Below, piece by piece: positions 2,165 to 22,111 of a stretch of 47,394 nt of DNA. This DNA is from Clostridia bacterium (GTDB lineage: Bacteria; Bacillota; Clostridia; UBA1381). A program made the position numbers and the translations under genes. The first letter of the stretch is position 1. Every line of letters starts with the position of its first letter. The notes beneath the pieces are model-generated. The model saw nothing but the letters and a program-made list of their open reading frames with translations. It did no database searches and was not told the origin of the DNA. The stretch is taken from assembly GCA_045590035.1 (NCBI GenBank), contig JAZNQG010000200.1, positions 1-47,394 of the forward strand, written 5' to 3'.

Positions 2165-2423
2165 AAAAAAGCTATCATTTGTCCCCTGATTGGGACGAAA
2201 GATAGCTTCCGTGGTACCACCCAAATTGGCTTAAAAATTTTTAAGCCCACTCTTTTTATCGACTTAACGCGTCTTATTACGTGCGGTTCTAATAACACCT
2301 TTATATGTGCGTTCTTCCGCAAGCTCCGGAGTGTTCTTCATTAGAAATCCGTTTACCGCCTTTTCAGCTGCCGGCAGCTCTCTTATAAAACAGAATTTTC
2401 CAACTACTCTCTCCATCATAGCC
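2165..2423 (-). promoter_or_regulatory. T-box leader (tRNA-sensing riboswitch) with intrinsic terminator
   Basis: The minus-strand sequence AATTTGGGTGGTACCACGG (2210-2227) matches the conserved T-box. AGAGAGTA and AGAGAG stem-I motifs are present. The terminator hairpin GATAGCTTTCGTC...GACAAATGATAGC is followed by a T run (2165-2210). Confidence 0.9.
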
Positions 2424-2443
2424 TTTTTATATTTAACACACTT

Positions 2444-2721: not shown

Positions 2722-3867
2722 TTATCTGTCCTTTAAAAAGCTCGGAACATTGATGTTGTCAATGTCATTTCCACGGCTTCTTGAGAAGATTGAAGGCTCG
2801 CTTGATGAAGGTGCCTGGAAAACAGGACCGCGAGATTCTGAATCAGAAGATGAAACTGAGAAAGGTGTTGCGGGCTTAGGACCACGTTTAACTGTTGTGT
2901 TAAGACCTGTAGCAACGATTGTAACCTTGATTTCATCTTTAAGATTTTCATCTGTTGCAGTACCGATGATAATCTGTGCATCATCTGAAACCATTTCGCT
3001 GACAATTGCAGAAGCTTCACTCATTTCAACCAATGACATTTCAGTTCCGCCAGTTACGTTAAGGAGAATGCCCTTAGCACCTGCGATGCTTGTTTCAAGA
3101 ATCGGAGATTCAATTGCCTGTCTTACAGCATCAGCGGCAGCATTTTCGCCCTTGCCGAAACCGATACCCATATGTGCTACACCTGAGTCACGCATTACTG
3201 CACATACATCGGCAAAGTCACAGTTAATGATACCGTCCTGAGCGATAATGTCGATAATGCCTTCTACACCCTGACGAAGAACTTCGTTTGCAAGCTTAAA
3301 TGACTCTGCAATGCTTGTTCTCGGGTCAGCGATTTTAAGTACTAAGTCGTTGGGGATAGTTACGATAGAGTCAACATTTGCGGCCAACTCCTCGATACCT
3401 GCAACTGCGTGCTGCATTCTTGACTTTCCTTCATAGAAGAAAGGCTTAGTTACAACAGCGATTGTAAGGATACCCATTTCTTTTGCAATTCTTGCGATGA
3501 TGGGAGCAGCCCCGGTACCTGTACCGCCGCCCATACCTGCGGTTATAAATACCATTTCGGTATTTTCGAGCATCTTTCTTATCTGCTCTTCGCTTTCTTC
3601 TGCAGCTTTTTTACCGATTTCAGGCTTTGCACCTGCGCCTAAACCGTTTGTGAGTTTAACACCGATCTGCAATGCAGTCGGAGACTTAACATGCTTAAGC
3701 TGCTGTGAGTCTGTATTTACTGAGATGAATTCAGCATTCTTAACGCCTGCCTCAATCATTCTGTCAACAGCATTGTTTCCGCCGCCGCCTACACCGATAA
3801 CCTTAATTCTTGCGCCGTCAATAGGTGCAGACTGAGTCTGATCGAGTGCGAATTCTATGTTAGCCAT
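2722..3867 (-). CDS. ftsZ: cell division GTPase FtsZ
   Basis: [10 protein letters not shown] and [10 protein letters not shown] tubulin signature. I prefer the ATG at 3867 (AAGGAGG 10 nt upstream) over the TTG at 3873. Confidence 0.98.
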
Positions 3868-3987
3868 AATCAAAAATCCTCCTTAGCATACTATACATAA
3901 TATCATTTTACTACGAATTTTTAATTTATTCAATAGTTTTTGTAATTTATTTGCAAAAAAATTTTTATTTTTTGTGTTTTCGGCATT

Positions 3988-6453: not shown

Positions 6454-6630
6454 TTGTGTCCGTAATGGACACAACATCATTACGAGTGTAGCGAGTACAT
6501 CATTTGACCACTTGTGGTCAACATCATTCTTATTTTACGGACACAAAATGATGTTATCCCAGATAAATGATGTGACACTTCGTATCAATGATGTTACACC
6601 TTCAGTGTAAACGATGTTGCACTTCGTACA
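6454..6630. repeat. hairpin/8-mer array A (word ACATCATT x3, then its reverse complement AATGATGT x3 plus one 1-mismatch copy)
   Basis: Exact 8-mers start at 6474, 6497 and 6521. Reverse complements start at 6547, 6566 and 6587, with AACGATGT at 6610. Perfect mini-hairpins lie at 6456-6472, 6505-6520, 6555-6565 and 6595-6609. Confidence 0.8.
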
Positions 6631-6645
6631 AATGCGTGATATACT
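6617..6645 (+). promoter_or_regulatory. promoter for the four-helix-bundle/hydrolase genes
   Basis: TTGCAC (6617-6622), a 17 nt spacer, then TGa-TATACT (6640-6645) as an extended -10. It overlaps the last unit of array A. Confidence 0.6.
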
Positions 6646-6664
6646 AAGTCTAGAGGTGAACTTT

Positions 6665-7021
6665 ATGCAAGAAGATAAACTTGGTACACTTTCGATGGAA
6701 TTATCTGTTGAAGTTTTAAATTTAGTCAAAGATTTGCGTAATAAAAAAGAAACTATCATATCCAACCAAATAGGAAGAAGCGCAACAAGTATTTGTGCAA
6801 ATATTGCAGAAAGCAAATATGGTCATAGCAGAGCGGACTTTATTGCAAAACTGGAATTCGCCTTAAAGGAAGCCAGCGAAACTGGAAAATGGCTTGAAAT
6901 GTTATATAAATCAAATTATATTGACGAAACAAAATATAAAAGCATTGATAAAATCTGCTCGACAATTCGTATTTTGTTGATTGCGTCAATAAAAACGGCA
7001 AAGAAAAATGCAAATAAGTAA
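6665..7021 (+). CDS. four-helix-bundle protein (23S rRNA intervening-sequence protein / Avd-like family)
   Basis: The protein is about 118 aa. The motifs NQIGRSATSICANIAE and ...LKEASETGKWLEML are typical of this family as I recall it. The ATG at 6665 follows a GAGGTG RBS. Confidence 0.75.
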   Translation: MQEDKLGTLSMELSVEVLNLVKDLRNKKETIISNQIGRSATSICANIAESKYGHSRADFIAKLEFALKEASETGKWLEMLYKSNYIDETKYKSIDKICSTIRILLIASIKTAKKNANK

Positions 7022-7069
7022 TTCATTATGAATTTATCTTTTATAAGAAAAGCAATTAGGAGACAAAAT

Positions 7070-8237: not shown

Positions 8238-8407
8238 ACGATATGCAAACTTCGTTTGCTCGATATTTTTGTTTTCACAAAATCGATATGTTTTTCGTTT
8301 CACTCAAAACTCGATATGCTGTAAATCTCGTTGCCACAGGCAACATATCGAGTGTGTCAGCACATATCGAGTCATTTATGACATATCGAAAATCTCGACA
8401 GAGATTT
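8238..8407. repeat. hairpin/8-mer array B (word TCGATATG, then its reverse complement CATATCGA x3)
   Basis: Forward copies start at 8238 (ACGATATG), 8260 (TCGATATT), 8283 and 8311 (both exact). Exact reverse copies start at 8344, 8363 and 8382. Mini-hairpins lie at 8245-8259, 8267-8282, 8331-8343, 8371-8382 and 8390-8407. Confidence 0.8.
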
Positions 8408-8416
8408 ATAACGATG

Positions 8417-8455
8417 AAAAAAGACAGATTTCGTGTTCGAAATCTGTCTTTTTTC
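8417..8455. terminator. bidirectional rho-independent terminator (serves tRNA-Arg on the minus strand)
   Basis: A 13-bp stem AAGACAGATTTCG/CGAAATCTGTCTT is flanked by an A run and a T run. Confidence 0.85.
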
Positions 8456-8532
8456 TGGTACACCTGATGCGATTCGAACGCACGGCCTTCAGAGTCGGAG
8501 TCTGACACTCTATCCAACTGAGCTACAGGTGC
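8456..8532 (-). tRNA. tRNA-Arg (anticodon CCG), CCA encoded
   Basis: Hand-folded cloverleaf: anticodon stem TCAGA/TCTGA, loop CTCCGAC, T loop TTCGAAT. The 1-72 pair is a G-U wobble. Confidence 0.85.
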
Positions 8533-8543
8533 ATAATACGATA

Positions 8544-8572
8544 ATTATAACCATTTTATGCCTTTTTGTCAA
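8544..8572 (-). promoter_or_regulatory. promoter for tRNA-Arg
   Basis: Minus strand reads TTGACA (8572-8567), a 17 nt spacer, then TATAAT (8549-8544). Confidence 0.75.
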
Positions 8573-8608
8573 GAATATGCGGTTTTAAGCTTCATCCCGA
8601 AAAATGAG

Positions 8609-8637
8609 TTGCAATCGGCATATAAATATGATATAAT
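8609..8637 (+). promoter_or_regulatory. near-consensus promoter firing into array C, divergent from the tRNA-Arg promoter
   Basis: TTGCAA (8609-8614), a 17 nt spacer, then TATAAT (8632-8637). Confidence 0.7.
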
Positions 8638-8822
8638 GAGTTTGCAAAGCAAACTCAATGAATTGCCTGAAGGCACGAATTGAAATCAAAGATTTCATGA
8701 AATGAGCCTGGTGGCTCATGAATAGCACCTATCGGTGCTATTTACGGCAATTCAATTCATGGAGCGTTAGCGAGAATTCATGGCGATAGCCAATTCATGA
8801 CAACGAAGTTGTCAATTCATGA
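8638..8822. repeat. hairpin/8-mer array C (four 1-mismatch variants of CATGAATT, then AATTCATG x4 exact)
   Basis: Forward variants lie at 8657-8664, 8674-8681, 8696-8703 and 8717-8724. Exact AATTCATG starts at 8754, 8775, 8792 and 8814. Hairpins lie at 8638-8656, 8665-8674, 8682-8696, 8704-8717, 8724-8739 and 8800-8812. Confidence 0.8.
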
Positions 8823-8892
8823 AAATTGTTTGACATCTAAATCGTTCACCAATTCTATAATCTAAAAAACTGCCACCGGGTAGTAGATGCTG

Positions 8893-8954
8893 AAGCATTC
8901 GTTTGCATATCGTTAGGTCTTAGAAGATATGCAAGAACGGATGCTTGTTTTTTT
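8893..8954 (+). terminator. strong intrinsic terminator/attenuator immediately upstream of the pnuC RBS
   Basis: An interrupted hairpin of about 19 bp (8893-8911 pairs with 8926-8946) is followed by G plus T7 (8947-8954). The GGAGG RBS is at 8955-8959. Confidence 0.75.
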
Positions 8955-8964
8955 GGAGGTAATT

Positions 8965-9651
8965 ATGAAAACTAAAAATCCGTTTTCTGACCTTAGCCGT
9001 TTTGAACTTATTTTATGGCTTTCGTCGGTCATTATAACCTTAATATCATATATAATATCGGGTACGGGCGATGTACTTACCGTAATTGCATCGTTGATTG
9101 GAGTAACTGCACTTATATTTGTTGCAAAAGGCTATGTTTTAGGGCAGGTGCTTACTGTTGTATTTGCAGTATTCTACGGGATTATATCCTTTTTCTTTAA
9201 ATACTACGGAGAAATGATAACCTATCTTTTTATGACCGCACCGATTGCTGTTATGTCTGTTATATCATGGATTCGTCATCCGTATAAAGGAACAAAAGAG
9301 GTGGAAGTAAGCTCACTTAATAAAAACCAGATTGTATGGGGAATTATATTTGCTGTATTAACAACAGTTATTTTCTATTTTATTCTTTTTGCGATAGGAA
9401 ATAAGAATCTCTTTTTCAGCACAATCTCAATTACAACAAGCTTTCTTGCCTGTTACCTTACATTTTTAAGAAGTCCGTATTATGCAATTATGTATGCATT
9501 AAACGACATAGTTTTAATTGTTCTCTGGGTTATGGCAACTATTGAAAACATATCCTATTTTCCGATGGTTATCTGCTTTGTAATGTTCTTGGTAAATGAT
9601 ATATACGGGTATTATAACTGGAACAAAATAAAGAAAAGACAAGCTGGCTGA
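8965..9651 (+). CDS. pnuC: PnuC-family nicotinamide riboside (or related vitamin) transporter
   Basis: A polytopic membrane protein of about 228 aa with PnuC-like length and C-terminal W...NDIYGYYNW pattern. The ATG at 8965 follows a GGAGG RBS. Confidence 0.75.
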   Translation: MKTKNPFSDLSRFELILWLSSVIITLISYIISGTGDVLTVIASLIGVTALIFVAKGYVLGQVLTVVFAVFYGIISFFFKYYGEMITYLFMTAPIAVMSVISWIRHPYKGTKEVEVSSLNKNQIVWGIIFAVLTTVIFYFILFAIGNKNLFFSTISITTSFLACYLTFLRSPYYAIMYALNDIVLIVLWVMATIENISYFPMVICFVMFLVNDIYGYYNWNKIKKRQAG

Positions 9652-21713: not shown

Positions 21714-21942
21714 AAATAAAAATGCAATAGCTAATGCTATTGCCAAAAAACACCAAAATAAAATGCGTGTTCGGCAGTAGCACTCCATCCTAAGATGACA
21801 GTCGCAATGCTTTTAACATTACGCCCAGCCCAAAGGGATTTTTCGGCATATCCCAAAAGACTTCGGCGGTTCATCCTTTCGCAACTGTCAAGTACCGATA
21901 AAACACAGCTGTTACTTATAATCACCGCGCCTCTACTTCCAA
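21714..21942 (-). promoter_or_regulatory. lysine riboswitch (L-box) with terminator, controlling asd-dapA-dapB
   Basis: Minus-strand motifs AGAGGCGC, GAAAGG, CCGCCGAAG, CTGTCA and GGAGTGCTAC. The terminator GCAATAGC-atta-GCTATTGC (21724-21743) is followed by a T run. Confidence 0.88.
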
Positions 21943-22111
21943 TATATGAAATAATATCATTATTTTCAAGCTCTGTCAAGTGATTTTTGCTTTTTTTACT
22001 CATTTTATTGCGGTCTGAAATGAAATATGATATAATTAACATATATAACTGAATATCTCACATCATAAATAACAAAAATATAAAATATACTTAATAAGAA
22101 AGGATGATTAT

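Follow-up and report, generated by a model that had tools for sequence, protein, structure and literature searches.

The gene pnuC on contig JAZNQG010000200.1 of a Clostridia bacterium (GTDB lineage Bacillota; Clostridia; UBA1381; GenBank assembly GCA_045590035.1) is preceded by about 310 nt of hairpin-rich, untranslated DNA, and the question raised by this locus is whether these nucleotides represent a single regulatory RNA or several elements of different origin. The whole stretch of 47,394 nt that was analyzed is referred to here as the window, and all coordinates are positions on its forward (plus) strand. An initial annotation, made from the sequence alone, had described one long ladder of nested hairpins reaching from a promoter to a terminator just before pnuC. 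Comparison with relatives favors a composite, to which we assign a probability of roughly 0.75, consisting of divergent promoters, a conserved attenuating pnuC leader of ~88 nt, and an inserted hairpin array, designated array C, that is related to the RNA family Gut-1.

The leader was delimited with 80 loci from Clostridia genomes that encode PnuC relatives at 61-71% protein identity and originate from Acutalibacteraceae, Oscillospiraceae, Lachnospiraceae, and Ruminococcus, including one isolate, Porcipelethomonas ammoniilytica. All examples of the leader were gathered via pnuC, and the gene-association counts accordingly cover pnuC loci only. Short-word blastn of three intergenic regions showed that positions 8863-8960 are kept directly before pnuC at ~70 of the 80 loci and that array C is conserved upstream of pnuC at none of them. 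A covariance model (R1) built from an alignment of 60 distinct leaders (A1) gave exactly one hit in 74 of 81 loci, all on the coding strand and with 43-100 bits, including 14 loci outside the model-building set; minus-strand scores did not exceed 26 bits, and there were no further hits in 664 kb. At these 74 pnuC loci the leader always has plus-strand orientation, and its distance to the start codon is 0-40 nt in most cases. Its representative in the window, an orphan riboswitch candidate at positions 8866-8953 (plus strand), reaches 98.6 bits as the one hit upstream of pnuC. The consensus reads CUGCCACCGGGUAG...GUUAGGUCUUAGAAG, and the version of P. ammoniilytica is found at positions 3897-3986 of locus L038.

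The folding of the leader is well documented by covariation. The RNAalifold consensus of A1 comprises the hairpin P1 and a long terminator hairpin, with compensatory changes in 14 of 21 pairs. When the structure was specified as P1, P2, P3, and a loop-loop contact, 98.1% of the alignment cells could pair, compared with 24-38% for slid partners, and 12 pairs changed on both sides, which was matched by none of 500 shuffles. P1 (CUGCC-ACCG-GGUAG, 8870-8883, plus strand) has a nearly invariant loop and stem with compensatory changes in four of six pairs and contains a G.U pair that is conserved in 57 of the 60 sequences. The next hairpin, P2 (GAUGC-UGAA-GCAUU, 8886-8899, plus strand), is missing in ~8 relatives; its 3' arm doubles as the 5' arm of the terminator base, and the short hairpin AUGC-UGAA-GCAU (8887-8898) that had been proposed to compete for this arm is real. 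In P3, six of seven pairs covary. U.G pairs are frequent in the base helix of the terminator and, together with the conserved G.U pair of P1, identify the plus strand as the RNA strand. The loop-loop contact ACC:GGU can always be formed, with two G.U variants and one U.G variant in A1.

The intrinsic terminator (8895-8954, plus strand) is composed of the base helix GCAUUCG/CGGAUGC, the upper helix P3, and a nearly invariant 14-nt loop, GUUAGGUCUUAGAA (8912-8925), of which 10 positions are identical across all 60 aligned sequences. Its G+C-containing stem (8895-8944) runs into the U-tract UUGUUUUUUU (8945-8954), which is directly followed by the ribosome binding site (RBS) GGAGG (8955-8959) and by pnuC (ATG at 8965, stop at 9651, plus strand), so that the interrupted stem and U-tract described initially before the RBS are indeed present. 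Terminator and U-tract occur in every leader, and a simple terminator scan had omitted positions 8895-8954 solely because the loop is longer than 8 nt. Calculated for a transcript that ends at position 8936, the leader folds as P1, P2, and P3, and the complete leader folds as P1 and the full terminator, with a gain in stability of 9.5 kcal/mol. In loci L018 (3885-3989) and L048 (3887-3988), an extra hairpin is located within the terminator loop, between GGUC and AGAAG, which hints that the apparent apical loop is in fact an internal loop with a variable cap.

A covarying structure that is conserved across distant species and located in the coding-strand 5' untranslated region (UTR) of coherent genes has the generic hallmarks of a riboswitch. 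As had been recognized at the outset, pnuC is arranged like a gene under the control of a riboswitch or attenuator, behind a structured leader that contains a terminator and a competing hairpin. The leader at 8866-8953, which is strongly backed by the comparisons, appears to be a riboswitch candidate not described so far. Rfam 15 contains no family that matches the leader at the gathering threshold in the window and 17 relatives, and a cmscan of the 1-kb region at E values of up to 10 returned no credible family for leader or array; weak matches such as STnc420 and mir-553 were dismissed as chance. The search also corroborated that motifs for nicotinamide adenine dinucleotide (NAD+-II), thiamin pyrophosphate (TPP), and flavin mononucleotide (FMN) are absent, and the identities NAD+-II (pnuC), TPP, FMN, and thiS/hydroxymethylpyrimidine pyrophosphate (HMP-PP) were ruled out for the leader, as no Rfam model matched. 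Full-text literature on this gene family yielded the Streptococcus pnuC motif only and nothing for Clostridia, and the searches brought up no relevant publication on NAD+-III, hairpin-array repeats, or a pnuC riboswitch of Clostridia.

Which ligand could be sensed is best approached via the transporter. Judged by its sequence, the window protein is a PnuC-type nicotinamide riboside transporter, with 108.5 bits for Pfam NMN_transporter and 76.9 bits for TIGR01528 (cutoff, 42.45); the closest solved structure is the PnuC nicotinamide riboside transporter PDB 4QTN (E = 4e-20), and an exact-protein look-up with the window's own PnuC gave no match. The gene is essentially monocistronic among relatives, and a consistent downstream co-transcribed gene, sought to infer the ligand, was found at none of the related pnuC loci. 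Specificities within the Pnu family (nicotinamide riboside, thiamin, riboflavin, and deoxynucleosides) follow the upstream riboswitch (PMC7749635), and the ligand of the leader is therefore the informative question. The NAD+-II riboswitch (pnuC motif) of Streptococcus (PMC7749635, PMC8632094) is likewise located in the pnuC 5' UTR, which makes nicotinamide riboside, nicotinamide mononucleotide (NMN), or NAD+ the first candidate ligands. It differs in its architecture, since an internal bulge and an RBS-masking pseudoknot characterize NAD+-II, whereas the leader described here consists of two hairpins and an intrinsic terminator, leaves the RBS outside the structure, and occurs in Clostridia rather than Streptococcus. 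A ligand related to nicotinamide riboside or NAD is probable.

In the mechanism that we propose, the leader at 8866-8953 would act through transcription attenuation, with the nearly invariant P1 ahead of an intrinsic terminator whose base helix would compete with P2 for the strand GCAUU. Most likely, it is a riboswitch whose sensor forms part of the terminator itself: a pocket of P1 loop and terminator loop, possibly joined by ACC:GGU, would bind a small molecule related to the transporter substrate (nicotinamide riboside, NMN, or NAD+), and ligand occupancy would favor either P2 or the complete terminator. As TPP/PnuT, FMN/PnuX, and NAD+-II/PnuC suggest by analogy, pnuC would probably be switched off when the ligand is plentiful. 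An attenuator in which a protein or a second RNA recognizes the invariant loops of P1 and terminator, with no small molecule involved, is clearly less probable, even if two invariant loops on simple hairpins look like protein-binding sites, the multi-helix junction typical of large aptamers is missing, and P2 is dispensable in some leaders. No gene for a possible regulator accompanies pnuC in the relatives, genes of Pnu-type transporters are classically controlled by riboswitches, e.g., for TPP, FMN, and NAD+-II (PMC7749635), and the small HMP-PP riboswitch exhibits the same terminator-embedded layout (PMC6478431). The latter (thiS motif) also has a short conserved hairpin before a terminator with an abnormally conserved loop and alternative pairings at the terminator 5' arm, and both RNAs occur in Firmicutes; it differs from the leader by the lack of any sequence or model match and by its association with thiamin biosynthesis genes instead of pnuC.

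The second part of the composite concerns the DNA between promoter and leader. A search of a large protein collection revealed closer PnuC relatives with 93% (P0121) and 77% (P0123) identity, and their contigs (L325 and L326, two different samples, 93%; L328 and L329, 77%) all retain the layout of tRNA-Arg, divergent promoters, and leader. According to blastn and an alignment of these regions (A2), ...TGATATAAT runs directly into the leader start CTAAAAAACTGCC in all four relatives, and the junction between promoter and leader is formed by ...TTGCAATCGGCATATAAATATGATATAAT and CTAAAAAACTGCCACCGGG. Compared with them, the window contains 224 additional nt (8638-8861), i.e., a 218-nt hairpin-array element (8638-8855, no strand assigned) that is composed of an end hairpin (8640-8654), array C, and a tail with TTGACA (8830-8835), and a second TATAAT (8856-8861, plus strand), which is a 6-bp direct duplication of positions 8632-8637. 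The relatives have a single TATAAT. Presence or absence at a precise site, flanked by the duplicated TATAAT (8632-8637 and 8856-8861), is the pattern of an insertion. Insertion is more parsimonious here than loss, because the array is absent from the 93% and 77% relatives and from essentially all distant loci.

Since this promoter is joined to the leader in the four relatives, the "divergent promoter" at 8609-8637 (TTGCAA-17-TGaTATAAT with TG extension, plus strand, 10/12 consensus match) is the ancestral pnuC promoter. Its partner (TTGACA-17-TATAAT, 8572-8544, minus strand, 12/12 match) is located 5 nt from the mature 5' end region of the tRNA-Arg(CCG) gene (8456-8532, minus strand; ARAGORN; Rfam tRNA model, 65.4 bits), and its -35 and -10 boxes are kept in L325, L326, L328, and L329. 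The back-to-back promoters named in the initial annotation thus exist and are conserved in relatives, despite the fact that the three promoter-like matches of the consensus scan in this 1 kb do not exceed the chance expectation of 3.9. Together, the promoters for tRNA-Arg and pnuC would represent the old conserved layer of the locus. Beyond the tRNA gene, a perfect 18-bp hairpin (8416-8455) with an A-run on one flank and a T-run on the other would form a bidirectional terminator, for tRNA-Arg on the minus strand and for plus-strand read-through of array B (see below).

In the relatives the -10 box lies ~8 nt before P1 and conservation sets in at ~8863-8869, which places the start of the ancestral leader near 8866-8869; the "310-nt RNA" is, given the insertion of 224 nt, a chimera. 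The alignment of pnuC upstream regions that had been suggested revealed covariation in the last ~88 nt, and the claim of one leader or small RNA (sRNA) of ~310 nt is not sustained, as only positions 8866-8953 are conserved and covarying and the remainder is a strain-specific insertion. A transcription start near 8865 had been named in advance as evidence against a long RNA, and by comparison the ancestral leader does start there. A ~310-nt transcript from 8609-8637 is still possible in this strain as a by-product of the insertion, and transcripts from the old promoter would now bear ~224 nt of unrelated hairpins ahead of the riboswitch. The TTGACA carried by the element, 20 nt upstream of the duplicated TATAAT, possibly represents a regenerated replacement promoter.

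That the whole stretch from 8640 to 8954 evolved as one leader or sRNA, with nested word helices that sense or attenuate for pnuC, is highly improbable in the light of these comparisons. The promoter at 8609-8637 does point into the array, the next terminator is that at 8895-8954, and the folding energy of positions 8640-8960 is well below that of shuffled sequences (z = -5.8), but the minus strand folds almost equally well (z = -5.4), array C is missing upstream of pnuC in 80 of 80 genome loci, and four closer relatives have promoter and leader without it. Nested pairing of the repeated words can be drawn, as initially proposed, and is not the favored fold: forcing the ladder resulted in -44.8 kcal/mol compared with a minimum free energy (MFE) of -69.3 kcal/mol, i.e., 24.5 kcal/mol worse, with pair probabilities of ~0. 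This energy difference and the existence of arrays with words in a single orientation led to the rejection of the ladder. The preferred fold of array C consists of local hairpins and one closing helix, GAAUUGCC:GGCAAUUC.

Several observations weigh against the composite reading with a riboswitch as its core. Sixty of the 74 R1 hits are sequences that were used to build the model. The ACC:GGU contact is nearly invariant and never covaries; it fits the data, yet it is unproven. The designation "riboswitch" is derived from architecture and gene association, and is to be understood as a candidate status. The ~8 members without P2 imply that the competition between P2 and terminator is not the whole mechanism and that something else must oppose the terminator. 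For the second part of the reading, the direction of the event, i.e., insertion instead of a deletion between the two TATAAT copies, is deduced by parsimony from four relatives and ~70 distant loci, and the TTGACA-N20-TATAAT arrangement has a poor spacer, so that array C may be transcribed within the pnuC 5' UTR of this strain.

The anatomy of array C is based on short words that separate small hairpins. The word AATTCATG has four exact copies in the window (8754, 8775, 8792, and 8814), all of them in array C, and inverted copies with one mismatch begin at 8657, 8674, 8696, and 8717, in agreement with the positions of the four exact and four near words given initially; nine word matches in 165 nt contrast with ~1.2 per kb window-wide. 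Block 1 (8657-8724, plus strand) contains four one-mismatch CATGAATT words and the hairpins gcc-tgaa-ggc, gaaatc-aaa-gatttc, and gagcc-tggt-ggctc. The center (8725-8753, plus strand) harbors the hairpin agcacc-tatc-ggtgct and GGCAATTC, the partner of GAATTGCC (8660-8668) in the MFE structure. Block 2 (8754-8821, plus strand) comprises the four exact AATTCATG words with the joiners gagcgttagcgag, ggc-gata-gcc, and gacaac-gaa-gttgtc. As stated initially, small hairpins lie between the words; counting those that flank the words, there are seven, including a weak one. The junction CAATTC-AATTCATG is kept in loci L221, L279, and L318. The spacer GAGCG(W)(W)AGCGAG (8762-8774; in array A as GAGTGTAGCGAG at 6484-6495) recurs in L221, L272, L293, and L318, i.e., in arrays with different words; it is no ordinary hairpin, has a GC stem of only 2 bp, and contains TAGCGA.

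A homologous array C element is present in L318 directly before the RBS of an unrelated gene, with the same order of hairpins and, compared by eye, ~90% identity in the left half and center. Both ends of the array C element carry GTTTG..AAAC-like pieces, again by eye, and the two blocks of the array have nothing but the words in common (71% complementarity over 31 nt). At the right end (8829-8841), overlapping TTGACA, lies the rare motif TTTG(N2-3)TCTAAA (10 copies in 664 kb), which is also present in four copies (3385, 3760, 3800, and 3935) around an array-B-like element of L085; it may be an element end sequence or an operator.

The closest described family is Gut-1 (RF01706), which, like array C, consists of tandem short hairpins with a constant purine-rich joint (GUGAAAU in the Gut-1 model, AUGAAUU in array C) and derives from gut-type Clostridia and metagenome DNA. 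Gut-1 was described as a motif of three hairpins joined by GUGAAAU that is found in the human gut only and has no known function (PMC2864571). Positions 8656-8728 of array C score 22.8 bits (E = 0.083) with the Gut-1 model, and related arrays in L279 and L069 reach 37.8 and 29.2 bits, respectively, all of which is below the gathering threshold of 50 bits. Array C nevertheless exhibits the Gut-1 layout of at least three adjacent hairpins with constant joints and an unpaired GAA core, here CAUGAAUUG, and the model aligned to L279 displays the same order of hairpin, UGAAU, and hairpin. Three Gut-1 hits at or above the threshold (51.7-54 bits; plus, minus, and plus strand; word AUGAUAUA) are located at positions 13257-13565 of L293, immediately before a tRNA-Lys gene promoter, on a contig that also carries AATTCATG arrays. 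Array C differs from Gut-1 by its two blocks of inverted orientation and its defined center and ends. Array C also behaves as an insertion flanked by a 6-bp duplication, for which, to our knowledge, no precedent has been reported among Gut-1 RNAs.

On the basis of their sequences, array C and its relatives form a dispersed family in which constant words of 7-9 nt connect short, perfect hairpins. A metagenome scan for three spaced AATTCATG words recovered ~23 true arrays among many unrelated tandem repeats, with unrelated small hairpins as spacers, on contigs with a GC content of 0.40-0.66; L293 harbors three AATTCATG arrays with 12-21 words each. Both block orders occur, single-orientation arrays exist, and the neighbors are ordinary chromosomal genes, e.g., for glycoside hydrolases and cell-wall enzymes. 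No sequence relationship connects the hairpins of one array with each other or with those of other arrays, and the joints alone are constant, being variants of NNGAWWU in all these arrays when read on one strand. On the AATTCATG strand the loops mostly begin with G and end with A (GAA, GCA, GCAA, and GTAA). The word ATGTAAT is shared by L016, L069, and L162, and compensatory substitutions between L016 and L162 keep the hairpin stems and a flank-to-center helix. A scan of viral contigs for three ATGTAAT words detected mostly tandem repeats of giant viruses, with L162 as the sole true array.

Whether these arrays act as RNA or as DNA is a matter of balance. The discoverers of Gut-1 assigned it to the sRNAs (PMC2864571), and array C could accordingly be a functional sRNA gene of the Gut-1 type, transcribed from 8609-8637, e.g., as a sponge for a protein or RNase or as a stabilizer, whose proximity to pnuC is incidental. 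We regard this as rather unlikely. It would account for hairpins that are maintained by compensatory changes in the homologous arrays of L016 and L162, for the mostly GNA or GNRA-like loops on one strand, and for the strong promoter that points into array C. This promoter, however, predates the element and belongs to pnuC, other arrays have no consistent promoter, and the arrays occur in either orientation, with no fixed position with respect to genes. The 103 distinct hairpins comprise 510 Watson-Crick pairs, 10 G.T pairs, and 7 A.C mismatches; counting G.U against A.C as a test for the transcribed strand showed no asymmetry, and the lack of G.U enrichment does not favor a classical RNA gene, since G.U pairs (10) are about as few as A.C mismatches (7) among 537 pairs, unlike in typical RNA genes.

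The other possibility, for which the chances are close to even, is that the arrays are selfish or structural DNA repeats, comparable to miniature inverted-repeat transposable elements (MITEs), repetitive extragenic palindromic (REP) sequences, or bacterial interspersed mosaic elements (BIMEs), with no dedicated function at this locus, where array C would be neutral or mildly disruptive. The precise presence or absence with a 6-bp duplication, the same element in another context in L318, the accumulation of several arrays on the contig of L293, the ordinary chromosomal neighbors, and the near-perfect Watson-Crick stems are in line with this explanation. Loops of the type C-GNA-G are, moreover, unusually stable in DNA. 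REP sequences, BIMEs, and bacterial MITEs resemble the arrays in that they are short, hairpin-rich repeats of noncoding intergenic DNA, are often situated behind stop codons or terminators, and vary in presence between strains; array C adds a short direct end duplication. The relationship between palindrome and linker is, in contrast, reversed: REP sequences conserve a repeated palindrome and vary in their linkers, whereas the arrays have unrelated hairpins and conserved joints of 7-9 nt and thus no conserved repeated palindrome. Clear terminal inverted repeats are not seen in array C, and no integrase, transposase, or REP-associated tyrosine transposase (RAYT)-like gene was found among the neighbors of the arrays examined. 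A DNA-level repeat of the REP/MITE kind is considered somewhat more likely than an sRNA, and the issue is not settled.

Two further elements of the same kind are present in the window, and the first of them provides another case of strain-variable presence. Array A (6456-6630, no strand assigned) contains three ACATCATT words followed by four AATGATGT-like words and forms, together with a gene for a 118-aa protein of the four-helix-bundle type (6665-7021; 23S_rRNA_IVP / TIGR02436), a block of 603 nt (6456-7058). This block is absent from L081, a contig with 89-96% identity, where 44 nt including the promoter of a beta-lactamase gene stand in its place; no direct duplication was seen at the ends of the block. 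Array B (8238-8410, no strand assigned) consists of four CGATATG words followed by three CATATCGA words, and 49 nt of it are 96% identical, in inverted orientation, to L085 and L086, in which the array-B-like stretch is located upstream of a homologue of the beta-lactamase-family gene. Where array B is located in the window, immediately downstream of the tRNA-Arg or the beta-lactamase gene, runs of N are found in L325 (932-941) and L328 (4583-4681), and the contig of L081 ends (3255), an indication that assemblies may break at such arrays. The first unit of array B (8238-8250) and the 5' arm of P3 in the leader (8901-8913) share an exact reverse complement of 13 nt (ACGATATGCAAAC / GTTTGCATATCGT), with a rough chance expectation of 0.0005-0.01 that was computed after the fact. 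Array words that target complementary sites in the window were considered and rejected as a general pattern, this match and a palindrome at 7020-7034 being the only instances. The same applies to a constant association with tRNA genes, which holds for the window, L016, L069, and L293 and not for most metagenome arrays.

A more far-reaching interpretation, which we put forward tentatively and hold to be somewhat less probable than its opposite, is that the leader represents a new riboswitch class, i.e., a third unrelated sensor of nicotinamide riboside, NMN, or NAD+ or a sensor of a different substrate, and that arrays of the Gut-1 type are new non-autonomous mobile DNA able to land in promoters. 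If so, the leader would unite aptamer and expression platform in a minimal, terminator-embedded form that is widespread in gut and rumen Clostridia. Binding of a metabolite would make it a riboswitch class with a very small, terminator-embedded aptamer and provide a handle on the sensing and import of NAD precursors in abundant, mostly uncultured gut and rumen Clostridia, and its ligand would define the substrate of this PnuC clade. The orphan Rfam family Gut-1 would have to be viewed anew, as some of its members behave like inserted, dispersed DNA elements. These observations are relevant for annotation, where array elements that split a promoter from its leader can pass for long structured leaders, and for assembly, which they may hinder, as contigs or scaffolds of relatives break beside some array positions.

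Elsewhere in the window, ordinary known regulatory elements are present, namely a T-box leader (2188-2428, minus strand, 130.6 bits) and a lysine riboswitch (21770-21943, minus strand, 94.6 bits). In the 77% relative L328, the initial ~28 nt of a tRNA-Leu region (taaatatgctcgagtggcggaat) recur as a partial duplicate ~120 nt upstream of the full gene (2960-3000 and 3085-3190).

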